Source of the DNA: Naegleria gruberi | Lineage: Eukaryota | NCBI GenBank assembly: GCA_000004985.1 | Contig: GG738924.1 | Direction: 5' to 3' (one strand) | DNA: 64,000 nt | Shown here: positions 13,262 through 55,889 of the stretch, piece after piece | How the letters are laid out: each line of letters opens with the position of its first letter | How positions within the stretch are numbered: position 1 is the stretch's first letter | Position numbers and translations under genes: made by a program | The notes under the pieces: model-generated | The model's database searches: none | Seen by the model: the letters and a program-made list of their open reading frames with translations, nothing else | What the model was told of the DNA's origin: nothing

Positions 13262-16200
13262 ATGAAAAAGATATCAACCTTTTTAAAGAGGAAGGAAAGT
13301 GAACATAGATCAAAGCATGCCAGCAATAGCAGCTCTGGGAGTTCTCCAATCTCTCCGAATCATCAAGGCTTTGTGATGGTTGAACATGAAGACGCCATTC
13401 TAATTTCTAAAAACAGCAGCACAACAAGTTCAACAGCTGTGGAATGGAATGAAAAGCTTGAAGAGGATTTCAAGCAATACTTGGACAAAACCTTCAAGAA
13501 TCAAACTGAAACAATAGAAAAGTTGATGGCCCTTCCACCAAAGAAAAAGATGGAAATTCTCAAATTGAAGCAATCTCAGATCAGTTCTCAGAACAATATC
13601 TTACTTCACTTGGAAACAACAATGAATAACATCAAACATCCGCTCTCCACCTTGACACTACATACGCAACTGAAGGAATTGAGAGTTGTCTTGTCAAACT
13701 ATGCCGAAGCAGAAGAAGCATTCATCAATAGAGGTGGTGTTGATTTCACCATGAAATCTCTTTCCAATAATCTCGGTAATCTGAATGGAGCTGCAGACGA
13801 GAATAACAAACTCTTGTTTGCTGAAATTACCATCTCTATTATTATGATCTTGACTCAAATTTGCAAAAACAATGAAGGATTGGAAAAGTTTTTAGAATAT
13901 CCAAATAGTATTGAAGAAATCTCCAAGGCTCTCTTACTGGAACATGAAGATAAGGGTCAGAGGAACTCGATATATTTCCTATTGTCATCATTGTGTTTTT
14001 GTAGGGATGGTACCTACGTTCCACAAGTTTATGAATCTGTTAAGAATTTGTCAAAAATTAGAGGTGAAGAACAATTCTTAACTGTTGTGCAGCATTTGAG
14101 AGAGGCCAACAGTTTAAAGAGCAGATACATCATTCTGGCCTTTATCAATATTTTGATGAGGCAAGCTCCTGTTCAATTCAGAAGAGAGCTAAAGCAACGA
14201 TTTATCAGCGCAGGTGTTTATACTGAGGTTAAAAAACTGGAAAAGATTAAAGTGGAAAATAAGGATACAGAGGATGCCCTCAAGCTAAGCAACCAAATAG
14301 AAATTTTCAACAAGATTATTTCTGGAGATTTAGAAGAAGATATTTTTGATGATTTGAGAGAAATTGTCGAAGAATTAGAAAATTCTAATGTTCCTCTAGC
14401 TGAGGGAATTAAGGCAGTTTCTGAAAAGATGTTGGAGAAATGTAATCAAACTTCGTAAGTTTTAAACAGTTTCAACATCATTAATTATTTATTCAACAAC
14501 AGATCAAGTTTGGAATGGGTCAATGATATCAAAATAATTTTGGAGGGAAGTGAATCTGTAAACTTGTTAAAAGATAGAAATCTCTCACTTCAAAAACAAG
14601 TGGATACCATTACAAAAGATAATGCACAATTAAAAGATCAAATGGAAAAGCTAAAAGTCAGAATTGAAGCTTTGGAGAAGGCACCACCAACAGTTATTGT
14701 GAAAAAGGTTGCAGTTGTAAGACAAGTTGGAGAATTGAAATCGTCTGGTTCCGGTAGTAATCTTGCAGGTTTAGTGGAATCCAATTCACCGACAACATCA
14801 CCTCCTAATATTTTTCCAGATGATACAGTTCCCTCTTGTAACAGCTCTGTTCCACCACCTCCTCAAGCTAGCTCTGTAGTGCCTCCACCTCCAGGAATGG
14901 GAGGTGTTGTTCCTCCACCACCAATTGGTTCAAGCTCAGTTCCTTTGCCTCCCATGACCATCAGTAGCTCTGTTCCTCCTCCACCTGTGGGGTTCAATAG
15001 TTCTGTTCCACCTTCGTCATCTATTCCTTTACCACCAGTAATGGGAACTGTTCCACCAAATTCTGCCATTCCTTTGCCACCAGGAATGAATAGCTCTGTT
15101 CCAATGCCTCCAGGTATTCCTGTACCACCAGGAATAGAAATGCCAGTGGTAGGAAGTACTGTTCCTCCTCCTCCAGGTTTTGGTGGCGTTCCTCCTTCTG
15201 GGTCTGTTGTTCCTCCACCTCCAGTTGGAATGACTAGCTCAGTACCATTACCTCCAGGAATGGGAGTATTGTTCCTCCACCGCCTTTCTCAAATGTACCA
15301 ATGCCTCCTGGTTTTGGAGGTGTTCCACCTCCTCCTGGAATGAATGGTACTGTTCCAGTTCCTCCACTAGGAGTGGGAATGCCACCCCCACCAATGTTTG
15401 GATTTGTACAAACACCACCTGTTATTGCAAGTGCTCCAAAACTTCCAGACATACCTAAGAAGAAGGCTTCTGTGCCCACTAAGGACGTAAGACTCAACAA
15501 ACTAGATAATAACAAACTTCAAAAGTCTGTTTGGATGAAGAAGAACATTCATGCCAAGTTATTCGATATTGATATTCCAGAAAAAGAATTAGAAGATATG
15601 TTCGCTCAAATTTCTAAATCCCCTAGTGTAGGTTTAACTCCAGAAAAGTCAGAAAAACCAAAGGATACAACAATAAGTTTATTGGAAGGACCTAGATTGC
15701 AAAACGTTTCCATCTTTATGAAATATCTCAAGATGCCTTCAACTCAGTTGGTTGAAAAGATAATGACCATCTCTGATGATTTTAATGAGGAATCAATTGG
15801 AAAATTGTTGAATCAAGTTCCTAATGAAGATGAAATTCAAAGACAAAATGATTTTGATGGAGATGAAGCCACATTGAATGAAGCCGATAAGTTTATCAGA
15901 GCCATGATGAAGGTTCCGAGACTTGCTTCCAGATTGAAATGTTGGAATTTCAAGTTGAAATATGTTGAAACAAAGGCTTGTATCAACCCAGACTTGGAAA
16001 CCATCATTTCAACATGTGCTAGTTTGGTAGAATCTGAAAAACTTCAAGAATTGTTTGCTGTCATTTTGGCTTTCAGTAATTACCTTAGCAGGACTGGTAT
16101 CCATGGATTCAAATTGAACTCTCTCCAAAAATTAAAAGAAACAAAAGGTAATGCTAAGAACATTACGCTCCTTGATATGATTGTCAAGCATATTACAAGT

Positions 16201-17103
16201 GCAAAACCAGATATTCTCAAAGTTAAAGAAGATTTGAACATGTTGGAAAGGGCTGCCAGAGTTGAAATGCAAACATTAGCAGACAAGATTGACAGTATGG
16301 AAAAGTCTATTGCTCTTCTGAAAACAGAGATTCAATACTATAGTAAAAATCCACAGCCAAACGATAGATTCTTGGAAGTTTTTGGATCCTTCCTGAATGA
16401 ATGTGAGGATGAAATGAAACTTATTAAGGAAAAGCAACAAAATATGGATAATCAAATTTCAGGGGTTGCTGAATTCTTGGGTGAAGACCCAAACACTGTA
16501 AAGAAGGAACCAAAGGAAATGTTTTTAATGTTAAATTCATTCATTACTGACTTGTACAAATCAGTAGATAATTTGAAAAAGGAAGAAGAAAAGAGAAAGA
16601 AGGAAGAAAGCAAGCTTGCTAAGGAGAAAGACAATCGTCCATCATCCCCTGTAGTTACAGTTGGTGGATTGAAGGCATTTAATTCATTCAGAACACCATC
16701 TAAAGTTCCTCTCATTGCTGAAAATGCAGATGTTTCTGTAACACCAAGCAGTCCTGTAACTCCAATTATTATTTCCTTACCAGATAGTGAACCAAGTGTG
16801 GAAATCACTTCTCCAAGTACACCAATTCAAGAGAAGCAAAATGAGCCAACTATCGAATTAACCAAGAATGGACATGATTTGCTTTCACCTTCGATGCAAA
16901 TGGGTAATTCTTTCGAAGAAAATAGTCCATCAAGACGTAGTGGTCACATTAGAAATCCTTCCATTCTCATGTCTCTTGAAAAGTCCCTATATGAAGGTTC
17001 TGCCTTATTGTCCCCATCTACAAAGACAAGAAAGAGAGGTGGAGGAATGATGACAGGTTTAGATATGAATGAATTGAGTGCTGCATTAAATAAAAAAAAG
17101 TAA
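13262..17103 (+). CDS. Formin (Diaphanous-type: GBD/FH3 - coiled coil - FH1 polyproline - FH2). Exon1 is 13262..~14454, the intron ~14455..14502 (GTAAGT..AACAG) and exon2 ~14503..17103. There is an apparent -1 frameshift near 15262-15266 inside the FH1 region.
   Basis: ATG at 13262. The FH1 has many VPPPP/LPP repeats (14830-15420). The FH2 core (15600-16700) is strongly formin-like (LNQVPNEDEI.., KFIRAMMKVPRLASRLKCWNFKLKYVE, LFAVILAFSNYLSRTGIHGFKLNSLQKLKETKGN..TLLDMIV). The ORF track gives three pieces: 13262..14458, 14510..15343 and 15301..17103. The 15343/15301 overlap is a frame change inside proline codon repeats (GMG | IVPPPPFSNVPMPPGFGG). Confidence 0.88.
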
Positions 17104-18550: not shown

Positions 18551-20683
18551 ATGACTCACAAGAATAACTCTACCACCAACAATACCACAACGTCTTCATC
18601 CATTGACCAAAATGCTACCACTTTTCAATTTCAATTTGTCTTTGACAAGGTCATGCTCAACCAAAGAACATTGAAATTATTCAAAGAATTTCTAATGAAG
18701 AGTTTACATTCCCCAGAAGCTATCCTCTTCTATGAGAAAGTTCTCGAATTTAAATCATTCGAAGGACAAGCTCTGACTGAACATCAGACGAAACTTGCTT
18801 AGAATATTGTGGAGAATGTTATTTTTGTTGGCTCCGCGCATGAAATTAACATTGGAAAAAGAGAGAGAAATCAGGTACTTGAGAGGGTGAAGAGATTATT
18901 AGGTAATAACCCACAAAGAAGTGAAGTTGAGTTGCAATATTTTTCGAATAGTAAGCAAACGCTCAATAAGAAAGAAACCGAAAGTGATGAACAATCAGAA
19001 ACTTCAACAAATAAGCAAAAGAGCTTTTCTTCGATGAATGAGACTTCTACCTTCATAATGGTCGATCCAATTAACATTTTTGATGAAGCATTAGTGACAG
19101 TTAAGAGACAACTCAAAGAAGACGTGTTTCCACTTTTTTTGAGAAGTGACAGATTTCTGACATTTTGTAAGAAGGCATCGAGAGAAACTCTGGGAGAGAT
19201 TGGTTATGAGAGAAGACAGTGTCGTCAATCTGGCAACGTTTCTATTGAAGATTTTTGGAAATTTTACAGAGCTGATTGTGAATCTCTAAATGTCAATGGT
19301 CAAGATGTCAAATTTTTAAGCTCTTTATCAATAGATAGTTCTGATTGGACTCTATTAGAGCAAGAATACTTTAAAAAGAGTTGTTTTGCAACATTTGTTT
19401 CATCTGAAACTCATTGCATGATTAGACCAGAAACTTCCGAATATAGAAATCCAAATTCACAACATATTTACAAATGTACAGGTGTCATTAATCACTCAAC
19501 TGAGAAAGTATTGAAAGCTCTGACAGATTCTCACTTTATGGCCACTTATGATAATAATTTAGCTGTTTGTGAATGCATTGATTTTGTAAATTCTCAAATT
19601 CAAAGCAATTCTCTTCCTGAATCATTATTCGAATTGGACGAAACTGTTCAATTCTCCTCCTCTATCATTCTACAAAATTATCCTTTCAACTGGCCACTTT
19701 CTGGAAGAGATTTCCTCACCAGTCAAACAGATGTCTATGAAAAATCCACTCAACGTTATTTCATTCTCATCAAATCTGTCAACCATCCACTTGCCAAACC
19801 AAAAGAAGGAAGTGTCAGATCTTATCTTGTCGGTGGTTGGATTATTCAACCAATTTCTGATGAATTCTCACGATATACTTTGGTCAATTATATGGATGTG
19901 AATATGAGTGAAAAATTAGTTCAGCAATTTCAACTGAGGAGAGGAAAGAAATTATTCCATTCGTTGAATAAGATATTGAAAGAGATGGACAGGAGTTCAA
20001 TGAATGAGGTGAATGATTCGTGTGGTTTATTGGAAACTTTGGACGAATTTTTGGATTTATACGAAATTAACATTGATGACCAATATAGGAAAGTGAAGAA
20101 ACTAAACAAGATGGAAATGAAGGAACTTCTCACTCCAAGAAAAACTCACCTCGCAAGCACTTCTACCTCAAATCTCGACCACCTTTCGAATAAGATTATT
20201 CGATTGACCTACATTTCCAAATGTAAGAAAAATTTCAATTCTACAGAGCTTGACAAGATTGCAACCACTGCAACTCGATTCAATTCCAGTATCAACGTAA
20301 CTGGTCTCCTTCTCTATTGTAAAGAAGGAATTTTCTATCAAGTATTAGAAGGTGAAAAAGAATTAGTTTCAAATCTATTCGAAAAGATTAAGAAAGATTC
20401 GAGACATTTCGATGTGAAATGTGTCAAAATGGAAACAGATTTATGTGATCGTGATAGACAATTCAAGGGATGGGCCATGAACACAGTTAACTTGGAAACG
20501 TCAGATCATTTCTTTGCTGATTTTATGAAAGAATTATTAGTGACAGTTTCAAAGATGGAGCTCAATAACATGACAGAAGATCAAGCTGTTGGGTTTATAT
20601 TCAAGACATCGAGGCAGATGTTTGAGAAGAGTAGGGAGAGCGGATTTGTTTCGAGATTAGGTTCTTGTTTTTGTATGAAATAA
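18551..20683 (+). CDS. RGS - START-like - BLUF multidomain protein (putative blue-light sensor). A single in-frame TAG at 18800..18802 interrupts the RGS domain, so this may be a pseudogene, a readthrough site or a sequence error.
   Basis: ATG at 18551. The RGS domain spans the stop (..LKLFKEFLMKSLHSPEAILFYEKVLEFKSF..TKLA*NIVENVIFVGSAHEINIGKRERN..IFDEALVTVKRQLKEDVFPLFLRSDRF). The middle region has a START/Bet v1-like fold pattern (VRSYLVGGWIIQPISDEFSRYTLVNYMDVN). The C-terminal BLUF domain is IIRLTYISKC..INVTGLLLYCKEGIFYQVLEGEKELVSNLFEKIKKDSRHFDVKCV..FKGWAM, with the photoactive Tyr, Gln and Trp present. The track ORFs 18551..18802 and 18809..20683 share one frame. Confidence 0.8.
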
Positions 20684-21065: not shown

Positions 21066-24000
21066 ATGAGCAGCGTTGAATATCAGCACGGCAATGAAGT
21101 GCTTTTCATAAAGAAGGGAAGTAGTGGCGAGTCAACCAACAACAATAATAACGCGATGACCACAGAAAGTAATGATCATAAGGCACAGGAATTGGCTCAT
21201 CACGGCGATTCGAAGGATGAACATGTTGATAGTCAACATCATCACCCGAAAGGACCGTTTACATTAACGGCAGATGAATTGTCAGAGATGCATCAGAATA
21301 AGGATTTGAAAGGGTTGCAAAAGATGGGTGGAATGTCTGGTTTGATGAGAGATTTGAAAACTGATGCAAAGAGGGGGATTGCCTGGAAGTCGAATTATCA
21401 AAGTTATGATGAGAGGACGAATCTGTATGGTCTTAATGTGTATCCTGAACCGCCGGCTAAAGGTCTCTTCAAAATATTCTTTGAGGCTCTATCAGACGAA
21501 ACTCACATTATTTTAATGATATTCGCCTTCATTTCGATGGTGTTGGGATTGGCATTTCCTGAATCTGAAGAGGAAAGACCAATTGGTTGGATTGATTCGT
21601 TTGCAATTTATATAGCTGTAGCTATTGTTTGTGTGGTTACAACCGCCAACGACTATTCGAAAGAGAAAAAGTTTAAAAACTTGTCAAGAGAATCCAAAAA
21701 GGTAATGGTTAAGGTTATTAGAGATGGGGAAAATTTTAGCGTTCTCACTGATGATATCAGAGTTGGAGATATTGTTGAAATTGAACAAGGAGATGGTATT
21801 CCAGCTGATGGGCTCTGTATTGAATCAAACCATTTGAAAACAGACGAATCTGTCATGACAGGAGAACCAGATTTGATTAAGAAGAATACAACAGAATTAA
21901 TTTTCTTATTGAGTGGTTGTACAGTTGCTGAAGGTTCTGGAAAGATGCTTGTTACAGGTGTTGGTGTTGGAAGTGAATGGGGAAGAACCTTGCAAAGTTT
22001 GAAAGAAGCCAATGAAGAACAAAGAGAAACTCCTCTCGAAGCCAAATTAGATAAGCTCGCCATCAATATTGGTAAAGTTGGTACTGCATTTGCGATTGGT
22101 ACTGTTACCATTTTGATTTTGGCCTTTTGGATTAAGAAATTGATGTACACTTCAACTTGGGTTGAGGCCTCATCAACATTTGAAGAAACTTGGCAAGAAA
22201 AGAATGTAGTTGATGTGGTCAAGTACTTTATTATTGCTTTGACTATTGTCGTCGTTGCTGTCCCTGAAGGTTTACCACTTGCTGTCACAATTGCTCTTGC
22301 TTACTCTGTTCGTAAAATGATGAAAGATCAGAATTTAGTTAGACACTTGGCAGCTTGTGAGACTATGGGTGGTGCTAACAATATTTGTTCTGACAAGACT
22401 GGTACACTTACTTTGAATCAGATGAGAGTTACCCAAGCTTATTTTGGAGATCGATTCTTTGGTGAGCAATTGAGCTCAATACTGTTGACATTGAAATCAC
22501 CACTGTTGCAAGTAATCATTGATGGTATTGTTGCCAATTCAAAGGCAAACTTGGTCAAGGGTGATGACAATAATAAGAATAAGGAGTATGCCACTCAAGG
22601 AAGTAAGACTGAAGCTGCTCTTTTACTTTTACTTGTCAAACATTTGAATCAGACCATTGACAGTTACAAAGATAGAAGAAATGAATTGCTAAGTGAAGAA
22701 AGAGGCTCTCACCTCCAACTTCCATTCAATTCCAACTTGAAGCGTATGAGTACCATCGTTACAAACTCTGAGGGAGAAACCAGATATCGTCTCTTCACAA
22801 AGGGTGCTTCTGAAATTGTCCTCAAATTGTGCTCCTATCACATGGCTAGTGATGGTTCATTGAGAAAGATGGATTCTGAAAAGGAAGCTGAAATGATGAA
22901 ATGTATTGAAGATATGGCTAATCAAGGTTTGAGAACAATTTGCTTGGCCTACAGAGATGTCAATCCAGAAGTTGAATTCTCATCACGAGCTGATGAAGAA
23001 AATTATTTAGAAAATATTGATCCAGTTACCTTGGAACAAGATTTAGTATGTATTGGTATTGTAGGCATTAAGGATCCATTGAGACCTGAAGTACCAGCAG
23101 CTATTGAACAATGTAAGAAATCAGGTATCACTGTCCGTATGATTACAGGTGACAATATCTTGACAGCCAAGTATATTGCCAGAGAGTGTGGTATCTTGTC
23201 GAAGGATGGTATTGCTATTGAAGGCCCAACATTCAGAAAGATGACTCCAGAGCAAATTGATGAGATTCTTCCAAAATTACAAGTTATGGCTCGTTCCTCA
23301 CCAACTGACAAGTTTATTCTTGTAAAGCATTTGAGAAAGAAGGGTAACGTTGTTGCTGTGACTGGAGATGGTACCAATGATGCTCCAGCTCTTAAAGAAG
23401 CCGATGTTGGATTGAGTATGGGTCTTAGTGGAACCCAGGTTGCTAAGGAAGCTTCTGATATCATTATTTTGGACGATAACTTCTCATCCATTGTTAAGAG
23501 TGTGTTGTGGGGTCGTTCCATTTACGAGAATATCAGAAAGTTTTTAGTTTTCCAATTGACAGTCAACGTGGTTGCTTTGATTTTAACAATTGTTTCTGCT
23601 GTTTCGTCTGCTTTCCAACATAATTCTTCCTATAGGCCACCTTTGAGTCCTGTACAAATGTTGTGGATCAACTTGATCATGGACACGTTTGCAGCTCTCG
23701 CCCTTGCCACAGAACCTCCAATTCCAGAACTTTTAGACAGAAAACCTCACGGAAGAAAGGATTCCCTCATTACAATGAGAATGTGGACCTTCATTGCTGC
23801 TGAATCAATCTTCCAGCTCACTGTCATGTTCACACTCTTCTATGGAGCAACCTCATTCAGAGGACTTTCATTCAGCTTAGCCAGAAATGATGCTGAAATG
23901 AGAACCATCATTTTTAATGCTTTCGTATTTTGTCAAGTTTTCAATCAATTCAACGCAAGAAAGATTAATTTTGAGTATGATATTTTCAGAGGAGTTTTCA

Positions 24001-24317
24001 AGAGTTTCTGGTTTATTGGTATCACCATAATGATTTTCATTTTACAAATTGCCATCATTAACTTTGCCTATTATGATCCAATTCTTATTGGTTTGGGTAA
24101 GAATGATGGTTTGACTGCCTCCAATTTTACCCAGACCATTCCATTGAATTGGTATCAATGGGCCATAACTATTTCCATTGGTTTCATCAGTATTCCATAT
24201 GGCTTTTTAGTGAGATTCGTCAGCAGAATGTTTTTGAAATTATTGAGCTTGAAGAAGAATAACAGACAAATTACCAGTGATGGCTACGAGGAAACCTATT
24301 CCAAAGCAAGTGAATAA
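21066..24317 (+). CDS. Plasma-membrane-type Ca2+-transporting P-type ATPase (PMCA, type IIB)
   Basis: Uninterrupted 1083-aa ORF with ATG at 21066. P-type motifs are present: TGES-region, CSDKTGTLT phosphorylation site, KGASE, MITGDN, VAVTGDGTNDAPALKEADVG. It has ten predicted TM segments and strong overall similarity to PMCA/ACA pumps. Confidence 0.95.
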   Translation: MSSVEYQHGNEVLFIKKGSSGESTNNNNNAMTTESNDHKAQELAHHGDSKDEHVDSQHHHPKGPFTLTADELSEMHQNKDLKGLQKMGGMSGLMRDLKTDAKRGIAWKSNYQSYDERTNLYGLNVYPEPPAKGLFKIFFEALSDETHIILMIFAFISMVLGLAFPESEEERPIGWIDSFAIYIAVAIVCVVTTANDYSKEKKFKNLSRESKKVMVKVIRDGENFSVLTDDIRVGDIVEIEQGDGIPADGLCIESNHLKTDESVMTGEPDLIKKNTTELIFLLSGCTVAEGSGKMLVTGVGVGSEWGRTLQSLKEANEEQRETPLEAKLDKLAINIGKVGTAFAIGTVTILILAFWIKKLMYTSTWVEASSTFEETWQEKNVVDVVKYFIIALTIVVVAVPEGLPLAVTIALAYSVRKMMKDQNLVRHLAACETMGGANNICSDKTGTLTLNQMRVTQAYFGDRFFGEQLSSILLTLKSPLLQVIIDGIVANSKANLVKGDDNNKNKEYATQGSKTEAALLLLLVKHLNQTIDSYKDRRNELLSEERGSHLQLPFNSNLKRMSTIVTNSEGETRYRLFTKGASEIVLKLCSYHMASDGSLRKMDSEKEAEMMKCIEDMANQGLRTICLAYRDVNPEVEFSSRADEENYLENIDPVTLEQDLVCIGIVGIKDPLRPEVPAAIEQCKKSGITVRMITGDNILTAKYIARECGILSKDGIAIEGPTFRKMTPEQIDEILPKLQVMARSSPTDKFILVKHLRKKGNVVAVTGDGTNDAPALKEADVGLSMGLSGTQVAKEASDIIILDDNFSSIVKSVLWGRSIYENIRKFLVFQLTVNVVALILTIVSAVSSAFQHNSSYRPPLSPVQMLWINLIMDTFAALALATEPPIPELLDRKPHGRKDSLITMRMWTFIAAESIFQLTVMFTLFYGATSFRGLSFSLARNDAEMRTIIFNAFVFCQVFNQFNARKINFEYDIFRGVFKSFWFIGITIMIFILQIAIINFAYYDPILIGLGKNDGLTASNFTQTIPLNWYQWAITISIGFISIPYGFLVRFVSRMFLKLLSLKKNNRQITSDGYEETYSKASE

Positions 24318-31862: not shown

Positions 31863-34800
31863 TTACAAATCTTCATCATCTTCCTCATCGTCATCATCAA
31901 ATTCTTCATCACTGGCATCATTATCAGTTGTTCCAGTCATTGTAAAGTTTTCCATATCCGCATCGAACAATGTTAACATGGCATCTTCTTCCTCCAAGAT
32001 TGCCTCTGGTGAAATAAATGATTGTCCAAAGCTGGCTGTACTGTTTTGTCTGGAAAGCATCTTACTGGTATCATCAGAACATGAAGAAATTGTGCTGGAA
32101 AGTGGAGAAGTTGGTGGTAAATCGGTTCCCAATTGTTGTTTCTCCAATTGTTGTTGCTTTTCCAATTGTTTTTTGAGTTTCTTTTCCTTCTTTTTCTTTT
32201 CTCTCTTGTGTTTCTTGATGGTTGCTGCAAGACTCTTGTTTCTGATATTTCTACCCATTTTCAAGTCATTGTAGAGAGTTGCTGACATGTCGACTCTTTC
32301 GGCAGCTTCCTTGCCCATGCAGGAAATGACATGTTTCCAAACAGGATCTTCTTCTGGAATAACTGGAATGCTGTTAATGTTCTTTCGAATATAATCATTG
32401 AAACCTTTCATCATACCCTTGGCACGATCCATTCTCAACAAGTTGATGGCAAATCTGGCATTTCCACCAACATCCAACAAGTGAATTTGAGTAATATTAG
32501 TTCTATAAGAGTCAAGTTTCTTAATGGAATAGTATTGGAAATCTCTGATATCAATGAGCTTCTTTCCTTCATTGACGCCCTTGCCATCCATGTAAAATCT
32601 TTCGTGTTCGCATGGTTTGTAGAGGAGTGTTAATTTTTCTTCATTCTTATCATAGTAAGCTGTACAAACACTCAAGAAACTTCTCTTTGTTGTGAATGGG
32701 AATGGGAAACCAACTCCGTATCTGATAACACCACATGACCTAGGACCTCTCTTGAATTTCTCATTTGGATACATCTTTTTCAAAGTTTCAAAATCATAGA
32801 ATGATAATTCTTCACAGGAGGTAATATTTGGATCGTATTTGTGAACTTGCAATCCTGGCATGCAACATTTCTTGACAGCGTCAAAAGGAAATGGTAAAAT
32901 ACCTGTCCACTTGTTAATTTGCATTTTCTGATAGAATCCAACGTTAGGGAAGAGTACCTTTTCTGATAATTTATATACATTGATAGCTCCTTCCTTCTTG
33001 GATCCCAATAATTTCCATTGATAATCATCTCTTGCCAAGTATTCCATAAATTCAATGTCCCTGTCAAAGACAAATGGTAATTTAAAGTCTTCATCTCCGT
33101 ATGGATAGTAAGTGGCTTCCTTGAGACGTCCAACTTTGGTCAAATAACTCAAACCTTTGTGTTGTAATTTCTTAAACCACACATCACTTCTCACAAACCT
33201 AGGGAAACTGTCATTTTCCAATTCATACATGACAGAATTCTTCATTGTACGGAACAACAAGTGTGGAGGTTGTGGCAACAACCATTCATCAAATTCCTGA
33301 TATTGTTTTGATTCTTGGAAGAGTCCAACAAAGGTACGTTTGTCACGAGAGGAAATGTTAATTTCCTTCTTTGAATCTTCCTCAATAAAATCTTTCATAA
33401 TTTGAATTGCTAACATGATTTGCTTTCTGTAAACTTTGAGAACTTGATCATATTTGGAACGTGGAGTATTTGGTGGAAGTGTAAGGAATGCGTGTTGGAG
33501 AGATCTTGGTCTATCTCCAGATGTTCTTGATGAGCTACCTGAAATATCAGAACGTTCAGAAGTTGGATCATCCTCAGGTGATGCAACTCCATTCCTCAAT
33601 TCTTCCTTCTTCTTTTCCTTCTTTTCAGTGAGAACTGTCAAGAGACTCTTCATGCCATTGTCTTCTTGTCCACTATTACTTGAAGCACCAACTGGGGTAC
33701 TATCTTCACTTTCACCACTTTCACTCTTTTCAACGAGTCCCAAGTTTAATTTTGGTAATGCTCTTGGAGTTGGTGTGGTAAGAGAAATACCAGGTTCTCC
33801 TACAGTACCAGAAGTGCCATTTGTTGCATGTTCATTGGTGAAGTGTTCAGTTGTTTTGATTGTGACCACCTCAGCATCAGTTTCAGTTGCCTTTACAGTT
33901 GGCACATCCTTCAAAATCATGTCCATCAAGGTGGTTTCTTTCTTTTCAGATGGAGAGGTTGGATTTGAATGTGGAGTATTGACATTACTATTTGTATTGC
34001 TATTTGGATTGCTTGCAGTTGCATTTTGATCCTTCTTCTTTTTCAAAATGGAAAGTCTCAAACTAAATCTATTAGACTTTTCAGATTCGTCATCTTCTGC
34101 ATCATTGGTAGTTGGAGTACTATTAGTTTGTGGTGTATTTGCTTTAGTTTCATCCACCTTTGGCTTTTTACCCAATCCAAAGAATGATAATTGTTTCTTG
34201 GCTGCTTTTCTTGGTGTAGTTGGTTCAGATTCAGATTTGGATGGTGATTTAGTCTTATCATTTTGAGTCATCATGAGCATCATCTTTGGTAAATCAGAGA
34301 ATGGAGTTTTAAAATGTGAAAAAGTGGCTGATGAGCCAGATCCAGAATTTGACAAGGAAGATGCAGCAGAACCACCTTCAAGAGCCAAATTAGCATTAGC
34401 AGTTTGAATATCCTTGACCATTTTCATCATTTTGTAATAGGTAAATTCCAATTCATTCACTCGAGTAATAAATTCCAAAGGTTCTGTATTGTGTTCAGTT
34501 TCCAAATATCTGTAAAAGGCACGAAACATGGTTCTATCTGTGAAAATTCCCTGGAATGAGAATAAATAATCTTCCAAATTGGTTTCAACGAATAATTGTT
34601 GTTGAGATGGCAACTTGCCAGTTTTTGAAATGTGTGAAGAGGAGGCAACAGTTGACAATCCTCTCTCTGCAGAACCTGATGATTTCTTAGTTGGCAGTGA
34701 AAAGATCATTGGTGTTTCCTTATATCTCTTTTCATCTGCATCTATTTTAGTTTCAATGGTTGGTGTAGCTTGACCATCTTCACTACCATTTTGTGCTCCT

Positions 34801-35165
34801 GCTGATGTTGTTGTCGATGATGATGTTGAATTGTTTTTATCATGTGAAGAATTGGTTCTGAAACGATTGAAAAGTTTGGAAGCAAATGAAGATGTGTGAG
34901 TTTTCTGAGTTGGAGTGGATGTAGTAGTATTTGGAGTTGAGGAGGTTTTGGTATTGCTATTCTTTCCATTAGATGTAGATGTGGTGATGGTGTTATTATT
35001 GGAAGTAGATGTGGAAATGTTGGTATGTTCGTCTTCATCATCCTCTTCTTCCTCTTCGACTGCTCCCAGGGCTTCTATATTCACTCCATATAATGTATTA
35101 TTATTATTATTATTAGCAGTATTATTATTATCATTATTATTGGTTGGATGTGGTGGAGGTTTCAT
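31863..35165 (-). CDS. Large RGS-domain / START-domain signalling protein with long low-complexity (N/S/T-rich) linkers
   Basis: 1100-aa ORF with ATG at 35165. It has an RGS N-terminal half (FQGIFTDRTMFRAFYRYLETEHNTEPLEFITRVNELEF) and an RGS C-terminal half (QVLKVYRKQIMLAIQIMKDFIEE..NDSFPRFVRSDVWFKKL), followed by a START-like domain (DYQWKLLGSKKEGAINVYKLSE..IDIRDFQYYSIKKLDSYRTNITQIHLLDVGGNARFAINLL). It is a paralogue of the RGS/START portions of the genes at 18551 and 54348. Confidence 0.75.
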   Translation of the reverse strand: MKPPPHPTNNNDNNNTANNNNNNTLYGVNIEALGAVEEEEEDDEDEHTNISTSTSNNNTITTSTSNGKNSNTKTSSTPNTTTSTPTQKTHTSSFASKLFNRFRTNSSHDKNNSTSSSTTTSAGAQNGSEDGQATPTIETKIDADEKRYKETPMIFSLPTKKSSGSAERGLSTVASSSHISKTGKLPSQQQLFVETNLEDYLFSFQGIFTDRTMFRAFYRYLETEHNTEPLEFITRVNELEFTYYKMMKMVKDIQTANANLALEGGSAASSLSNSGSGSSATFSHFKTPFSDLPKMMLMMTQNDKTKSPSKSESEPTTPRKAAKKQLSFFGLGKKPKVDETKANTPQTNSTPTTNDAEDDESEKSNRFSLRLSILKKKKDQNATASNPNSNTNSNVNTPHSNPTSPSEKKETTLMDMILKDVPTVKATETDAEVVTIKTTEHFTNEHATNGTSGTVGEPGISLTTPTPRALPKLNLGLVEKSESGESEDSTPVGASSNSGQEDNGMKSLLTVLTEKKEKKKEELRNGVASPEDDPTSERSDISGSSSRTSGDRPRSLQHAFLTLPPNTPRSKYDQVLKVYRKQIMLAIQIMKDFIEEDSKKEINISSRDKRTFVGLFQESKQYQEFDEWLLPQPPHLLFRTMKNSVMYELENDSFPRFVRSDVWFKKLQHKGLSYLTKVGRLKEATYYPYGDEDFKLPFVFDRDIEFMEYLARDDYQWKLLGSKKEGAINVYKLSEKVLFPNVGFYQKMQINKWTGILPFPFDAVKKCCMPGLQVHKYDPNITSCEELSFYDFETLKKMYPNEKFKRGPRSCGVIRYGVGFPFPFTTKRSFLSVCTAYYDKNEEKLTLLYKPCEHERFYMDGKGVNEGKKLIDIRDFQYYSIKKLDSYRTNITQIHLLDVGGNARFAINLLRMDRAKGMMKGFNDYIRKNINSIPVIPEEDPVWKHVISCMGKEAAERVDMSATLYNDLKMGRNIRNKSLAATIKKHKREKKKKEKKLKKQLEKQQQLEKQQLGTDLPPTSPLSSTISSCSDDTSKMLSRQNSTASFGQSFISPEAILEEEDAMLTLFDADMENFTMTGTTDNDASDEEFDDDDEEDDEDL

Positions 35166-38643: not shown

Positions 38644-41600
38644 ATGGATATTAATTCATCTACCAAGGAGGAAACACCTTCAAATGGTGATGGTACAAAG
38701 GATAAACCTAATTGTGCTGATGATAATTCTTCTAACAAGGAAGAAGAAACTATTCGAAATGATACGAAACGAAATTCTTCTTCGTCTACAAAACCAATAA
38801 TTATTCATCAAGATGGAGAATCTAATACACCACCAACAATTGAAAAATCAAATTCTCCTCCTACTACAATAACACATAGTCAATCTTCACCTAATATTTT
38901 CTATCCGAAAGGAAATCAACAAGTTTCTAATAATTTTCGTCATCATCAACAGATAGTTTTCAATACACCATCAACAACAACAATATTTGATGCTTCCCAT
39001 CCGTCTAATTCTATCGAATTAAAAGAAGTTTCGAATAGTAATACTACCGTTGCAATTCCCCTTCATCAAACAAATCAAACTAATCAAACTAATGTCCAAT
39101 CGACAAGAAATGGAAAATATTCATCTCTTGCCGATAATTCCTTCTCCTCTACTAACATGCCTTCACCAAATCATTCAACAACTGTCAGTCCAAATAATAC
39201 GAAAGGTGAGACTAAACAAACTCTCAGACATCGAGCATTTTCGAATGTAAAATTGATTTCACCTAGAAAGAGACTGAAACAATCTCCTTCCACTTCTAGT
39301 TTTCAAACTTCTTCTGATTCTTGGGATGTAAAAGAAAATCGTAAAGAATTGGAACAATTATTCGATTTTAAAAGAAGAGGTTATTCGAAAGGAGGCACCA
39401 AAGATTGTTGCTTTAATTTCTGGACAGCTATTTATAATACACTTTGTCCAGTGAATAGAATTTCGAACATTTTACTCTTCATTGTAATTATTCATACATT
39501 AGTTTGTATTATTGCAACTTCAGTGATTTTATATTCTGCGTAAGTTGATTTTCTATTAGAATGTTTTTGGAATTAATTTCAATTCATTGAACTGTCATCA
39601 TGTATCATACTTTATTTTTGGATTAATTTTCAATATTCTAATTTCTTTTAAAAGTGGAGAACAAAGTGTTCAAGAAATAACTCGACTCAATAATATGAAT
39701 CTAGTTCAAGAAATGGTTCAATTTTTGGATGTTGCAACCAAATCGAGTACAGAATTATCCATGCTCTTTTCAGTTCAATCGAAATATTACAATGATACGA
39801 AAGGAAATGGAAGTTTTGTCGAGCCAATCACTCGATTCTCAACAGTTGTTGCTCCAAAATTGTATACCTATTCAAACTCCTTGTCTATGGTTTATTATGG
39901 AAATGATAATGGTGATTTTGCATTTGCTGAGAGGTCTAGCACTGGTCCATATTTGTACCTTTCTCAGAACATTTTTCAGGATCAATTTAGTGAACTGTTC
40001 AAGAATAAGACATTCCCTGCTTCGAATAATATTTATGTGTTTCTTACGAATGATTATTTTGAGCCCTATCTTCAAAAGAGTAATACAGTATTTAGGATTT
40101 TGTACAATTCAACATATGATCCGAGAGTGAGACCGTGGTACACTGCCACTGAATCATTGGAAAAGGGAAAACCAGTTTGGAGTAATGTATTTGTGGATGT
40201 GAATGGAAATTTAAGTATTGCTGCCAGTTTAGTTTTGAATAATTTGAATAGTATCAAACCCTCCTTCAAGGAAGTGATTGGTGTTCATGTGATTTTCAAA
40301 AAAATTCAAACCTACCTGTTAGGACTCTATTCCTATACGAATAATTTGATGATTTTGATGGAGAATAATGGAAATTTACTCACTTCCAATGAAGATAGCT
40401 TTCCACTCACTTATTCCAACTTGTCGAGAGTGAACATATCCTCTTTTACCTCTGCCACTAAGTTTTCAAAGGAGGAGAAATCATTCTGGGGATTGAGCAA
40501 TGAAAAGCTAGATCTCATTGAAAAGATTTCCAATGTAATGGTTTCTAACAATTTACTAGATAAGAGATTTAATGGAACTGTTCCGTGCACTTCTGAAACT
40601 TTTCAAGCAACACAGGTTGCAGACATTCCAGATCAATTCTGTATTCTGAATCGATTTGTAGCCATCAAGCAGTATAACACATCAACTTCTTTTGTGAGTG
40701 TGAGTCGTTTGATTGATGCATGTGGCATGGATTTCTATTTTATAGTGAGCAGAACGTATTACTCATTCGCTGATGTATTGGTTGACCATTATGTTGGTCT
40801 ATTGGTTGTTCTTGTAGTTACTGTTTTGATTGGTACACTGGCTGTACTGGCTCTCACATCATGCATCTCTTATTCACTCTTCTTTGTCTCTAGAAAATTG
40901 TATTACATTTCCAAGTTAAGACAAGGGGACAAACCAAAGCAAAGTTTAGCTTACAAGGCACAACGAGCCATCAATATGATATTCTATGAGGTTCACACTT
41001 TACAAAAATGTTTGGATAGTGTAGAAAGAGCCAACTCGAGTTTTATCAAGTACATTCCAAGAAGTGTTGTCAAGTTTATTGTGGAAGGTTCATCAAGTGC
41101 CAAACTAGGAATGATTAACGCTGAAATTACAATAGTATTTACAGATTTAGCCAATTTTACAAATATCAGTGAGTCATTGTCAATTCACAATTTGCTTTTA
41201 GTTATTTCCAGATATTTTGAAGTTGTCACGTCAAATGTTCAAGAATGTGGAGGAATAATTGACAAATATATTGGAGACGGTTGCATGGCATTGTTCAATA
41301 CTCCCTATCAACCAGTCACTCATCATGCAGAACATGCTTGTAAGGCTGCAATCAAAATTGTCAAGGGATTGAAAAAACTAAACAAGGAAATGGAAGAAAT
41401 TTACAAGATGAAACTTCCAACAGAAATTAGTGCACGAGTTGGTGTTAATACTGGCAGCGCACTGATTGGAAATATTGGAACTCATGATAGATTGAACTTT
41501 ACTGCTGTTGGCGATTGTGTAAATGTTTCAAGTCGTTTGGAATCTCTCAATAGAATGTATGGAACTAAAATATTGATTGGTGAAGGAAGTGTTTCCACCT

Positions 41601-42577
41601 TCAAAGGAATTGACAAGCTCAGAGGAGAAACAAAGGACCATTTTTCAACCATGCTCGATCAAAGAGAATTTTCTCTCTCTGATCTCTCACAAAAAATGAT
41701 GAATTTGGTAGAATTTCAAGTAGCCACTCCAAAGACACACGAGAGTGTCGCTGCTCAGGCATCTGCTGATTTGGGAAAGGAAATGAGCTTTAGCTCTTCT
41801 TCCAATAATTTGAAAGCCACATCAACTTCATCCTCTCAGGACACTTCTCTGCCGCAAGTTGTGACCTACTTTATCGATACCATTTGCTTGAAAGGTAAAA
41901 ATCAACCTGTTCCAGTATTTGCAGTTCAATGTGATAGAAAATTAGCGACATCTGAACAAATTTACATTGAAAAAATGTTGGATCTGGTTCGTAGAGAGCT
42001 ATTGGAAGAGAAACGATTGAAAGATGTCATTCATTTATTGCGGAGTTTGATGCTTTTCTTTGAGGAGAATCAATTGACCGATTCACCAGTATTTAGAGAA
42101 CACAACACTGATCATTATGAGTTTAAATTTGGAGAGGAAATTCATACACCTATTTCTAGCATCAATGGAGAAAAGACCGAGGAGGAAATTTCTACCAATG
42201 TTGAAGGAGATCCCTATCCAGTCATTTACAAGGCCATTTCGAAACTAAAGGAAAGATTGGAACTTACCTTAATGGAACACGAAGCCAAGAAGAGAAAAGT
42301 CCAAATCAACAAGAAACGTAGTTTACTAACAGCACTCTCTATTGATACTCGATCCAAATCTGATCCACTCATTCATCCAATACTTCCAATTATTCCAGAT
42401 TTTTCAACAACTTCACTTTTGGAAGAAAACAACAATATTGAAACTGTGGAGAACTCTGAATCAACACCAACCATGGCCAAATATGAATATTATCGACAAA
42501 TGGCCTTGATGGAAAATGAAAATAGAAGAAGCTCAATGAAATTGGACGATTTTGCTTTGGTATTGCATGAGAAATAA
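38644..42577 (+). CDS. Receptor-type class III nucleotidyl (adenylyl/guanylyl) cyclase. It has an N-terminal S/T-rich region, a TM segment, a ~400-aa extracytoplasmic sensor-like domain, a second TM segment, a CYCc catalytic domain and a C-terminal extension. Exon1 is 38644..39539, the intron 39540..39654 (GTAAGT..AAAAG, 115 nt) and exon2 39655..42577.
   Basis: Splicing joins ..TSVILYSA to GEQSVQEITRL.. in frame. The cyclase core matches class III enzymes (ITIVFTDLANFTNISE..GGIIDKYIGDGCMALFN..ARVGVNTGSALIGNIGTHDRLNFTAVGDCVNVSSRLES). TM helices are LLFIVIIHTLVCIIATSVILY and LLVVLVVTVLIGTLAVLALTSCISYSLFF. The track splits the gene into 38641..39543 and 39587..42577. Confidence 0.82.
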
Positions 42578-49870: not shown

Positions 49871-51757
49871 TTAATCTTGTAAGATTTTGTTGGCCTTTCT
49901 CCAATTTTCAACAATGATCCTCACTGATTTGTTACTAGATTTCAATCTTTCGAATAGATCGGTCATGTTATTGAGACATGCAACTCGAACAATGTCAAAT
50001 AATGTACTGGCTATGAGTGAATCATCATTCACACTCAGAATTTCATGTTCAATTCTCAGATAAATTTGGTCAATGTTGGCAATATTCAATTCTAATGGAG
50101 ATCCTTCTTTCAGGTAGGTTTTCAATATTTTCATTGCCACCAGTTTCTTATTCTTTCGTTTGGGGGATTTTCTGAAATTTTCAATATCTCTATATGCTAA
50201 AACATCTTCATTACAATAACTCCTTGTCGCAAAATCCAATAACAATGCAAATGTCTTCCTATTTTTCAAAAATAATTCAAGTTCTGATTGAGCATACTCA
50301 GCTTGATGATTATCATTACGAATGGCATAAATGACAGGAAGAATGACTGAAATAATTATTTCCAATAATGAATAGGTCAGTAGAGTAAATCCAAATGGAA
50401 CGAAATAATCTGTCAAGAATCTGATAATCTCAATTTGTCCACTAATTATATAAGCAAGTGATAAAGCCACTTGAATAAATACCAAAACAAAAGCTTCAGT
50501 CTTAATTGACCAAGTATCTCTATCAACAAAGAAGAGAATGATCAAAAAGCTCACTTCTATCACAATGTAGAGTGCTGCTTCTGCTCCCAGCAATATAACA
50601 GTATTTGAGGTTGTAACACATCCACTATTAAATGCAAATGGACTCACATTCCACAAGAATATTCTCTTTCCACTATTACTATACGAAAGTTCATCAATTC
50701 CTCCCAATAAAGCCCAAATAGATAAGTGAATAATGAATGAAATTGTATAAGTGATTGCAATAAACTTGTAGCTCACCAAATATGAAAATATTTTGAACTT
50801 TTTGTCAGAGAAAATTGCAGAAGTGTTGTCAATGTCAGAAGAAGTGACCCACGTTTTTTGATCTTGTTCATCATGGACATCTTCTCCAGTTTCTGGAGTA
50901 ACCCGTGTTGTTGTAATCTGTTCTGAAGTTTGTGATGCATCGTTTGGATTTTCTTGTGATATATTTGAAATGGTACTCGAGTTATCAAATGTTTTTGGTG
51001 TCAATAATTCTGGTTGACTTGTCTCTGATAATTCCGTAGAAGATCCATGTTGTATAGATGCTAATGGAAGAATGGTAATACCTTTCAATTTGTCATCCTC
51101 TTGAACTTGTTGATCCACATTTTGTTCCTTTTTCACATTGGTCAATTGTTGTGGTTTTTCACTTTTCGTCTGAAACATTTGTGCCTTCTTCTTATTGAGT
51201 AAATACATGAAATAAATCCTCAAACATCGAAATACAGTTGGCAGACACAAACTAGGAATAATGATGAAAAACGAAAAAGTGTACAAGAAACATGGAAATA
51301 TTTTCCTCGAAATTGTAAATCGTAGACATGTAATGACCACAAAAGCCAAACTAGCTGATATTGTCAGTAGCATGTAAACTGGATTCCTAGCTTTGATGTG
51401 TCCACTCTTTCTCTTCCAAATAACTCCAACAGTTCCAAAAAGTGCCAACGTCAAATAGAGTGTCAAGAAGATGGATGCGATGATTGGTGTAAAGATGCTG
51501 TCTGGGCAAATATTATTTACCACTGTTGCATTGTATCCTTCACGACTCAAGTCTCCTAGATTGAACAATCTTTCGTCACATATTGAATAATTTGTTGTTG
51601 AGGTATTGTTGTTGGAAAGTTGTTGTTGTTGAATAGAATAAATTGTTGTTGCTATTGGATAACGATAATGAAAAGATTCTTGAATAAATGATGAAAGAAG
51701 GGTAAATATTCGAAATTGGGTTTCATTATTTTGACCTGCATGATGCAGCTGGTACAT
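49871..51757 (-). CDS. Seven-transmembrane receptor fused to a C-terminal RGS domain (7TM-RGS, AtRGS1-like architecture), copy 1 of a tandem pair
   Basis: 628-aa ORF with ATG at 51757. It has an N-terminal Cys-containing ectodomain (SICDERLFNLGDLSREGYNATVVNNICPDS), seven hydrophobic helices with a long Ser-rich third loop and a C-terminal RGS domain (KNRKTFALLLDFATRSYCNEDVLAYRDIENFRK..ILKTYLKEGSPLELNIANID..LFDIVRVACLNNMTDLFERL). Confidence 0.8.
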   Translation of the reverse strand: MYQLHHAGQNNETQFRIFTLLSSFIQESFHYRYPIATTIYSIQQQQLSNNNTSTTNYSICDERLFNLGDLSREGYNATVVNNICPDSIFTPIIASIFLTLYLTLALFGTVGVIWKRKSGHIKARNPVYMLLTISASLAFVVITCLRFTISRKIFPCFLYTFSFFIIIPSLCLPTVFRCLRIYFMYLLNKKKAQMFQTKSEKPQQLTNVKKEQNVDQQVQEDDKLKGITILPLASIQHGSSTELSETSQPELLTPKTFDNSSTISNISQENPNDASQTSEQITTTRVTPETGEDVHDEQDQKTWVTSSDIDNTSAIFSDKKFKIFSYLVSYKFIAITYTISFIIHLSIWALLGGIDELSYSNSGKRIFLWNVSPFAFNSGCVTTSNTVILLGAEAALYIVIEVSFLIILFFVDRDTWSIKTEAFVLVFIQVALSLAYIISGQIEIIRFLTDYFVPFGFTLLTYSLLEIIISVILPVIYAIRNDNHQAEYAQSELELFLKNRKTFALLLDFATRSYCNEDVLAYRDIENFRKSPKRKNKKLVAMKILKTYLKEGSPLELNIANIDQIYLRIEHEILSVNDDSLIASTLFDIVRVACLNNMTDLFERLKSSNKSVRIIVENWRKANKILQD

Positions 51758-53757: not shown

Positions 53758-54347
53758 TTTCTTTGTTGTGATCTTCAGCAACAGTGTTGACAACTTTGAT
53801 GGGAAAGGAAACTTTTCCAAGCCTCCGAAACAAAACGGGTTGATGTTATGCCTTACATATCATCTCGACTCGATTTTTTGGTTATGAAAATTTTTTGTGA
53901 TGTGTTGATTGGTATTGTATAATCTTTTTTAGGACCAAAGCTGTAATAATAATTTTTAAAAAATATTTGAAAAAGATATTGTTAATAATAATATCGGGTT
54001 GATGTTGTTAGTGTTTGAGTGGGTTAACAAGTTGAAACACCTGAAGGAATTTCAGATCAGCACGATGAGATTATTTAAATAGTAGTGGTTTTTAAATTTT
54101 TATTGTTGGACAAGTGTTCGTTGAGGAATGACCATACTCAATTCATCAATTACACGAATAACAATTTGAATATCGCCAAACAATCACTGTGTTTTACTCT
54201 TTACTTTGTGTGCTCAACAATAAAAAGAGTACTAGCCTTGAAAGCTTGTTTAGATTCTTACTGCCTTGATGTGTAACATGTCAGCCAATCTAAGGAAGTA
54301 AACGAAATATAAAAAAATATGAAACTCGTCATCACCGTTACATCAAC

Positions 54348-55889
54348 ATGAGTAATAATAGCACATCACAACAGAAGAAACGAAAATTCGAAACCAACCG
54401 ATATATGGTTGTTTTTGAGGAGTTGCTGAGAGCTCCAGAAGCAAGAGAAAATTTCAGAGGTTTTCTCAAACTGGTTCATTGTGAGGAACCTCTTCAATTG
54501 ATCGATGCCATTGATTCATACAGAACCGAACATAAAAAGCTAATAGATAATATTGATGACAGTGCTTCCGATTTTGATTTTCAAGGTTTTAAAAAGATAC
54601 TACTCCTTGTGAATCAACTTGAAAATATTGTAAATACCTTTGGATTGGAAGATTCTATTGAAAAGTTTTCACATTATTATATGGGTGCTTGGACTCGTAC
54701 ACTGAATCTCTACCATCTTGTAACACTAAAATTGGAATCCATTTCCAACTCTAACAAAACTAACAACAAGCAAATATTTGAAATTTTAGAAATTTTAAAT
54801 CCTTCCAATATTTTGGAAGATGTAGAGACAAAGGCAATTCTTGATTTGAAATATGATGAATTTCCAAGGTATGCCAGGTCGAATACGCTTCACTTGTTTC
54901 TTGTACGAAAGGGTGAAGAATATACGAGAAGAATTGCTATTAATATTGCTAACGATTTTTATGTAGATATTAGATTTAAACCTAAAGATTTTGAATCTCA
55001 ATTAATGACTGATAAGGATGTTTATTTTGCTTATACATTGAGTGAAGATACACCTGATTGGAAAGAATTAACTTGTAGCGAGAAACCTAACTTTTTACAG
55101 ACCTTTGTTTCAAAAACAGTTTATTCAATAGGACCAGACGAAATGAAAGGAATGAGATTATTTAAATTGGTAATGCATCTGCCCTATGCAGTTGAAGATG
55201 TTTGGGCTACGTATTGTGATATGAATACACGATTCAAACTTGATCACACTCTCATGAAAGATTTCAAATTGCTGAGATATATTCCACCACATCAGAAGAA
55301 ATCAAGTGAGCAACGAGATTCCATTTCATTTTATGAGATATTTGATGAGAGAGATAATCGATACACTGTGGATAAACCACCACTTGCCATTCAGATTGGA
55401 GCTCTGGGTATTGAAATGCACATTCCACTATTGAAACACAGAGACTTGCCACATACAATGACTTCACTTTATGATCCCTCGGTGAATTGTTACATGAACA
55501 TTGGTCACACGTGCAAGATTGAGGAATCACTCAGGCGTGCACCTACAGATAGAGTCAAGTCTGAAATTTTGTTCAATTACATGTTCTTTGGTACTGGAGA
55601 AAAATCAACAAGATTTATTCACACAGTGTATACAGACCTACATGTTCCTTTGGATTCTGATTTTGTTTTGAGTAAGATTTGGAAGAATAGAAGCAAACAA
55701 TTACAGGCCTCATTTGAAGAATTACTAGCAGAAAAAACCAAGGGAGGAACCATTTCCATTGACAAATCTATGGTGAATGATCATTTCAAATATTTTACAG
55801 CTGTGGAAGACAATGCCAAATTGAATAGAAAGTGGTACAGAGATTATTTGAGAAAGAAAAATCAAATGCAAATTGAATATGGTGATTGA
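54348..55889 (+). CDS. RGS-domain / START-like domain protein
   Basis: 513-aa ORF with ATG at 54348. It has an RGS-like N-terminal region (YMVVFEELLRAPEARENFRGFLKLVHCEEPLQLIDAIDSYR..KAILDLKYDEFPRYARSN) and a C-terminal START/Bet v1-like region. It resembles the RGS/START parts of the genes at 18551 and 31863. Confidence 0.65.
   Translation: MSNNSTSQQKKRKFETNRYMVVFEELLRAPEARENFRGFLKLVHCEEPLQLIDAIDSYRTEHKKLIDNIDDSASDFDFQGFKKILLLVNQLENIVNTFGLEDSIEKFSHYYMGAWTRTLNLYHLVTLKLESISNSNKTNNKQIFEILEILNPSNILEDVETKAILDLKYDEFPRYARSNTLHLFLVRKGEEYTRRIAINIANDFYVDIRFKPKDFESQLMTDKDVYFAYTLSEDTPDWKELTCSEKPNFLQTFVSKTVYSIGPDEMKGMRLFKLVMHLPYAVEDVWATYCDMNTRFKLDHTLMKDFKLLRYIPPHQKKSSEQRDSISFYEIFDERDNRYTVDKPPLAIQIGALGIEMHIPLLKHRDLPHTMTSLYDPSVNCYMNIGHTCKIEESLRRAPTDRVKSEILFNYMFFGTGEKSTRFIHTVYTDLHVPLDSDFVLSKIWKNRSKQLQASFEELLAEKTKGGTISIDKSMVNDHFKYFTAVEDNAKLNRKWYRDYLRKKNQMQIEYGD

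Follow-up and report, generated by a model that had tools for sequence, protein, structure and literature searches.

An RGS-START-BLUF gene of Naegleria gruberi with a premature stop codon, and a possible link between blue light and Gα deactivation

A flavin blue-light sensor and a regulator of G-protein signalling (RGS) domain are found together in the RGS-LOV proteins of fungi, which bind anionic membrane phospholipids in blue light (PMC6099885). For the BLUF class of flavin sensors, a review (PMC12562191) relays the bioinformatic survey of Kaushik et al. 2019 (Appl. Sci. 9:3924), which is reported to list 'regulators of G-protein signaling' among the BLUF effectors. Naegleria fowleri harbors self-activating Gα subunits, seven-transmembrane (7TM)-RGS proteins and 79 further RGS proteins (PMC9283941). 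Since at least some Gα subunits self-activate in this lineage, the RGS proteins would be a main control point. We analysed a gene at positions 18551..20683 (plus strand, as are all its features given below) in a stretch of 64,000 nucleotides (nt) of N. gruberi DNA from contig GG738924.1; this whole stretch is called the window. The gene codes first for an RGS domain of R4-like type at the N-terminus, next for a lipid-binding START domain and last for a BLUF flavin domain of the photoactivated adenylate cyclase (PAC) type, with two helices behind it. It is probably the N. gruberi member of a heterolobosean three-domain family whose intact form would link blue light to Gα deactivation, here in a copy that carries a premature TAG.

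No experimental description of a natural RGS-BLUF protein was found in full-text literature searches. The coupling of RGS to BLUF, put forward in the original prediction from the letters of the window, is not unprecedented, as the combination is reported to be catalogued in the survey relayed by PMC12562191. The window gene is a real member of a catalogued but uncharacterised class. What is specific to this locus is the identification of the START domain, the premature stop and the faulty public gene models.

Domain architecture and the heterolobosean family

The BLUF domain (residues 550-643, 20198..20479) scored 87.6 bits against PF04940 in Pfam (cut-off 25). Its position at the C-terminus and its motifs LTYIS, FYQVLEGE, DSRH and FKGWAM had been predicted, and all four motifs are present in the translation: Tyr554 of LTYIS is encoded at nt 20210, Gln597 of FYQVLEGE at nt 20339, DSRH covers residues 616-619 and FKGWAM contains Trp641 and Met643. 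With Asn578, these Tyr, Gln, Trp and Met residues of the flavin pocket align with those of OaPAC and are invariant or nearly so in 15 family members. The nearest solved sequences were OaPAC and bPAC (E 7e-23 in the PDB sequence search; E 1e-11 in Foldseek). In the AlphaFold2 model, which covers the 624-residue open reading frame (ORF) with a mean predicted local distance difference test (pLDDT) score of 71 and a predicted template modelling (pTM) score of 0.68, the BLUF fold has a pLDDT of 79-91 across the domain and matches OaPAC, bPAC, TePixD and Slr1694 in Foldseek. The sensor looks photochemically competent.

Two predicted helices follow the BLUF domain (residues 654-696, 20510..20638; in ORF numbering they span 568-582 and 590-610). 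The first of them can be aligned with the helix after the OaPAC BLUF core, and the alignment extends through NLETSDHFFADFMKELLVTVSK. The gene ends in a short Cys-containing tail (…SRLGSCFCMK) and a TAA stop (20639..20683, from the translation). The last residues, …GSCFCMK (20660-20680), form a Cys-X-Cys tail and not a CaaX box, and no counterpart of this tail was seen in the homologues in the family alignment. That it might be lipid-modified is speculation. Upstream of the BLUF domain, the linker to START (19994..20197) contains two short helices and then a low-confidence stretch that is rich in Lys/Arg and in Ser/Thr; it has a pLDDT below 50 at ORF residues 431-459 and is poorly conserved in the family alignment.

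The RGS domain (residues 31-215, 18641..19195) is supported by Pfam, PDB sequence matches, the family alignment and an AlphaFold2 model of a second N. gruberi copy of the gene, which is 92% identical overall to the window copy in this region. The PF00615 match reached 44.3 bits (cut-off 23.9) in two stretches, the best at residues 31-123; the sequence scored was a read-through translation in which codon 84 is given as X. The predicted N-terminal RGS domain thus stands for the read-through translation, but the coding frame through the domain is interrupted. The domain is split by a disordered insert of about 50 residues (around nt 18902-19054). In the PDB sequence search the window RGS aligned with CG5036, RGS1 and RGS17. 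The modelled fold, with a pLDDT of 91-95, matched RGS16 (template modelling (TM) score 0.94), RGS4 (0.89), RGS1 (0.85) and RGS8 in Foldseek, and among the matches are chains whose structures were determined together with Gα. RGS4 residues Glu87, Asn128 and Asp163 are kept as Glu56, Asn100 and Asp191. In the family alignment the Glu87 and Asn128 equivalents are invariant, the Asp163 equivalent is mostly kept and the Asn88 equivalent is variable. The PDB alignments of the window RGS agree with the RGS4 sequence used for these equivalences. The domain resembles a Gα-binding domain of the R4 type.

A central START/Bet v1-like module had also been predicted. It was recovered as a START-like helix-grip domain (residues ~246-481, 19286..19993) by fold, by family profile and by Pfam in relatives, but not by a direct match, since no PF01852 hit was obtained on the window protein at E<=0.1. 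Five family members scored above the PF01852 cut-off of 22 (23.5-40.6 bits). A START-region profile built from 12 family sequences matched STARD10 (E 1.6e-7), STARD6 (5e-5) and STARD13 (1.4e-4) in the PDB. The AlphaFold2 model has strands at 180-363 and a long C-terminal helix at 368-395 (ORF numbering), and matched STARD5 (TM 0.79), STARD4 (0.76), STARD10 and CERT, with TM scores ranging from 0.62 to 0.79.

The family itself was found by an exhaustive search of 1.84 billion representatives, where word-indexed searches gave one to three proteins each. Thirteen family representatives were obtained at E<1e-30, and many of the top matches align from START through BLUF in a single stretch. KAL9658754.1 of Willaertia magna is 43% identical over residues 87-605 of the 624-aa ORF and is encoded by one uninterrupted ORF of 644 codons. 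The other named members are W. magna KAL9658275.1 and five proteins of Acrasis kona (KAL0486363.1, KAL0480502.1, KAL0484174.1, KAL0490722.1 and KAL0481578.1); the remaining ones are metagenomic, from environmental contigs. Both RGS and BLUF were above their Pfam cut-offs in eight of the ten members scanned, the other two having no RGS match, and no Guanylate_cyc match was found by Pfam in the window protein or in these ten relatives. The predicted order of RGS, START-like and BLUF domains is encoded by single genes in Willaertia, Acrasis and environmental contigs, and is therefore not a gene-fusion artefact.

The source records of three of the A. kona proteins (KAL0486363.1, KAL0480502.1 and KAL0484174.1) call them 'photoactivated adenylate cyclase subunit alpha' or 'pacA'. 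Judged by Pfam, which finds RGS, START and BLUF in them and no cyclase, these names are wrong, and it seems that a BLUF match was the sole ground for assigning them. A fourth A. kona protein, KAL0482910.1, outside the scanned set, shares the cyclase name and belongs to the same 90%-identity cluster as KAL0481578.1, a START-BLUF protein.

The in-frame stop and the second N. gruberi copy

Codon 84 of the frame at 18551..20683 is an in-frame TAG (18800..18802) that lies within the RGS domain, preceded by HQTKLA and followed by NIVENVIFVGSAHEINIG; the frame is open as 83 codons and 626 codons on either side of it. The 5' coding part (codons 1-83, 18551..18799), known from the ORF list and the translation, holds an Asn/Thr-rich N-terminus and, from about nt 18641, the first RGS helices. 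The original prediction had taken 18551..20683 to give one polypeptide and had missed this stop, and on that point it was mistaken. With a TAG inside the RGS domain, the copy as assembled cannot make the full RGS-START-BLUF protein, rare read-through excepted. It is a nonsense allele, a young pseudogene or the product of a base-call error. At this position Gln is found both in the second N. gruberi copy and in the orthologue of W. magna, which points to a CAG-to-TAG change. Because W. magna also has Gln there, Gln is ancestral at codon 84 and the window copy would carry a C-to-T change. In the AlphaFold2 model of the second copy the position belongs to a helix (77-91) with a pLDDT above 90. 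TAG aside, the window frame is intact and every family-invariant residue is kept in the family alignment.

Two other explanations of the TAG were rejected. In the first, an intron would cover it: all 52 in-frame GT..AG intervals of 25-400 nt were enumerated, none of the 52 had a GTAAGT-like donor, and all of them delete sequence that is coding in the homologues. One metagenomic homologue has a single GTAAGT…TAG intron in its RGS region. Naegleria uses the standard genetic code, and a reading of TAG as a sense codon was ruled out because three further long ORFs of the window end in TAG.

The second copy is XP_002668848.1 (NAEGRDRAFT_76231, 376 aa), which lies on a separate scaffold of 40,920 bp and was the only N. 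gruberi protein retrieved for the gene by any search. It has the same start as the window gene, including the N-terminus MTHKNNSTTNN…, and its Gln falls at the position of the window TAG. Over their first 165 residues the two copies differ by indels and by about 22 substitutions, and the next 154 residues are identical; five of the differences cluster within 20 residues around the TAG. In one of these five, Phe gives way to Val where most relatives have an aromatic residue. The divergence shifts abruptly between nt 18551-19045 (residues 1-165) and nt 19046-19507 (residues 166-319). This could mark the boundary of a haplotype or of a loss of heterozygosity, or it could reflect gene conversion, relaxed constraint or sequence of low quality.

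NAEGRDRAFT_76231 consists of the first 318 residues of the RGS-START-BLUF gene, followed by the C-terminal 58 residues of the calcium pump encoded next to it. Placed on the window, the junction runs from a GT at 19508 to an AG just before 24135, giving an 'intron' of 4,627 nt. This model is therefore a chimera, from which the remainder of START, the whole of BLUF and the greater part of the pump are missing, and the 4.6-kb 'intron' probably spans an assembly gap. The calcium pump does not adjoin the W. magna orthologue, as seen in a synteny check. The shared gene order of both N. gruberi copies suggests that the second is an alternative haplotype, a duplicate being the other possibility; Naegleria has been described as a heterozygous diploid (PMC9928731). 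No N. gruberi protein carrying the BLUF domain of the window gene was found in public protein collections, and exact look-ups of the 83-aa, 624-aa, 549-aa and 541-aa products found none on record there. In practice three corrections to annotation follow: the reference copy has a premature stop, the only public N. gruberi model found is a chimera without BLUF, and the cyclase names of the A. kona relatives are wrong.

It is possible, though we find it doubtful, that the TAG arose through an error in base calling or assembly and that the organism has an intact RGS-START-BLUF gene of 710 codons. The TAG lies a single C-to-T change away from the Gln codon to which the second copy and the W. magna orthologue point, the rest of the frame and all family-invariant residues are there, and the window comes from a draft assembly and contains a run of N. 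However, the differences and indels in the N-terminal 165 residues, five of them so close to the stop, indicate that the window copy is a genuinely different haplotype or copy, so that the Gln of the second copy does not simply carry over to it. In addition, the lack of any public protein model found with the BLUF part of the window copy fits a pipeline that drops a frame with an internal stop. We consider that the TAG is probably a real allele and a base error a clearly weaker candidate, with the small remainder left to low-level read-through or other readings.

Alternatively, the window copy could make a shorter START-BLUF protein from an internal start at Met162 (nt 19034) or Met170 (nt 19058), which would be a light-regulated lipid binder without a working RGS. 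In-frame ATGs are present after the stop, the whole of START and BLUF lies undamaged behind the TAG, and relatives without an RGS match exist (KAL9658275.1 and P0014 by Pfam, KAL0481578.1 by alignment). We regard this as very unlikely, as an upstream frame of 83 codons under a cap-dependent start at 18551 generally makes re-initiation inefficient and no evidence for an internal promoter was found. The upstream frame also shows no decay beyond the single stop, which argues for a recent stop and not for a long-standing shorter gene. The preferred reading of the locus is still that of a three-domain gene with a premature stop in this copy.

Paralogues without BLUF and neighbouring genes

The original prediction named two genes of the window that share the RGS and START part without BLUF, and both were confirmed by BLASTP against the window target protein and by hhalign probabilities against the START family profile. 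The paralogue at 31863..35165 (minus strand, 1100 aa) has a Pfam RGS match of 34.8 bits, a BLASTP E of 3e-9 and an hhalign probability of 95.6%. The one at 54348..55889 (plus strand, 513 aa, XP_002669629.1, NAEGRDRAFT_59903) gave a BLASTP E of 3e-7 and an hhalign probability of 96.7%; its RGS match of 21.3 bits is under the Pfam cut-off. A neighbour-joining tree of the START domains separates the proteins that have BLUF from the window paralogues, and it groups the window target, W. magna and a metagenomic homologue with 98% bootstrap. The deep nodes are unsupported, and three sequences without BLUF, which may be truncated, are placed between the proteins that have it. The predicted accretion of BLUF onto an RGS/START family agrees with the many RGS-START relatives that lack BLUF and with the tree, but a single event is not proven.

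The window belongs to the N. gruberi NEG-M reference; it is AT-rich eukaryotic DNA (~34% GC), with long ORFs and few introns. Three of its ORFs exactly match NEG-M reference proteins on one scaffold of 196,593 bp: 54348-55886 (XP_002669629.1), 56166-57323 (NAEGRDRAFT_54111) and 21066-24314 (XP_002669620.1), the last being the calcium pump next to the RGS-START-BLUF gene. Five genes with an RGS match lie in 62.6 kb of real sequence, at 18551-20683, 31863-35165(-), 49871-51757(-), 51826-53820(-) and 54348-55889, and four of them, all except the last, are above the Pfam cut-off. In two of the RGS genes of the window the domain is C-terminal, and one of these two, 51826-53820, is rich in hydrophobic stretches, as 7TM-RGS proteins are. 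Members of a very large family thus seem to be clustered locally. A large ORF at 39587-42577 (+) carries a class III adenylate/guanylate cyclase domain (58.8 bits), and no BLUF was detected in it. A Diaphanous GTPase-binding domain was seen below cut-off (21.3 bits) at 13262-14458 (+) and a strong FH2 domain at the adjacent 15301-17103 (+); both probably belong to a single formin gene that an intron or a frame change divides. Positions 62644-64000, up to the end of the window, are a run of N (an assembly gap or padding), which produces long minus-strand ORFs that are not real and an erroneous GC content of 12%.

Proposed function and comparison with known systems

The analyses above show the domains, their order, the conserved residues, the stop codon and the family; a flavin photocycle, GTPase-activating protein (GAP) activity and a coupling of light to the effector are what we infer for the intact protein. 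Its BLUF domain would bind flavin, blue light would rearrange the hydrogen-bond network of Tyr, Gln and Met, and the signal would be transmitted via the post-BLUF helices. The output could be allosteric, with a changed accessibility of the RGS surface for Gα-GTP, or it could be a changed START-mediated association with membranes or lipids, by analogy with fungal RGS-LOV; the net effect would be that light tunes the rate at which Gα is switched off. The most likely function of the intact protein would thus be blue-light control of Gα deactivation, via GAP activity or membrane recruitment. Light-gated GAP activity as such is pure conjecture.

Several points weigh against this reading. The equivalent of RGS4 Asn88 is Ala and that of Arg167 is Leu (residue 195) in N. 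gruberi, so that GAP competence is uncertain; the Leu is shared by one other family member. P0012 (W. magna KAL9658275.1) and P0014 have no RGS match by Pfam, and P0019 (A. kona KAL0481578.1) aligns without the RGS region, which suggests that RGS may not be the essential output. The BLUF domain is C-terminal to the presumed effectors and sits behind a disordered linker, unlike in PAC or BlrP1, and direct allosteric coupling is therefore not obvious. Full-text literature searches found no biochemical data on any family member.

These substitutions also bear on another reading of the intact family, in which RGS is a Gα-binding or scaffolding module and not a GAP, and light mainly controls START-dependent lipid binding, transfer or membrane docking. 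Besides the unconserved Asn88 equivalent and the Leu at Arg167, it is favoured by the occurrence of START beside GTPase-regulating domains elsewhere, as in STARD13/DLC2, which is among the profile matches, and by the light response of RGS-LOV, which is membrane lipid binding (PMC6099885). Nevertheless, the nearest folds are canonical GAP-active R4 RGS domains (RGS16 at TM 0.94, RGS4, RGS1 and RGS8), some of them solved with Gα, and the Glu87 and Asn128 equivalents are invariant. We hold a non-GAP role to be rather unlikely, and light control of Gα deactivation remains the preferred reading.

In A. kona, development is induced by blue light and two BLUF proteins rise in aggregation (PMC11589745). 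It is tentatively proposed that the intact family members are receptor-independent photoreceptors, in which light switches GAP activity, or START-mediated delivery of the GAP to the membrane, toward self-activating Gα, and that they could underlie blue-light responses such as Acrasis aggregation. The family is a candidate molecular link to blue-light-induced Acrasis development. If the proposal is true, no natural link from BLUF to Gα would be earlier than this one, optogenetic 'Gα-off' tools could be modelled on it, and nature would hold a counterpart to fungal RGS-LOV, which is already in optogenetic use. Light would then act at the GAP step and not at a receptor, a sensible design where Gα self-activates. 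Intact test proteins are offered by the family in W. magna KAL9658754.1 and the A. kona members.

OaPAC and bPAC (PDB 4yus and 5m2a) are nearest in BLUF sequence and structure, including the helix after the BLUF core, but their BLUF is N-terminal where that of the window protein is C-terminal, and the window protein has no cyclase domain. Mammalian STARD5, STARD4, STARD10, CERT and STARD13/DLC2 share the helix-grip fold with profile-level similarity, at a sequence identity of only 13-16%. DLC proteins pair START with a GTPase-inactivating domain; in STARD13/DLC2 this partner is a RhoGAP, whereas in the window protein it is an RGS for heterotrimeric Gα. The 7TM-RGS proteins that act on self-activating Gα (AtRGS1; N. 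fowleri, PMC9283941) follow the same logic, with the input at the GAP step and not at exchange by a G-protein-coupled receptor; there, however, the input is a seven-transmembrane receptor, and here a soluble flavin photoreceptor. Like the window protein, the fungal RGS-LOV proteins of the BcLOV4 class join a flavin blue-light sensor and RGS on one polypeptide, and their light-switched lipid binding is a plausible analogue for the output of RGS-START-BLUF. They differ in their LOV sensor, which has another fold and photochemistry, in the lack of START and in their occurrence in fungi and not in Heterolobosea; in Pfam, the window protein has no PAS or LOV match. RGS-LOV and RGS-START-BLUF are independent inventions whose sensors are not homologous.

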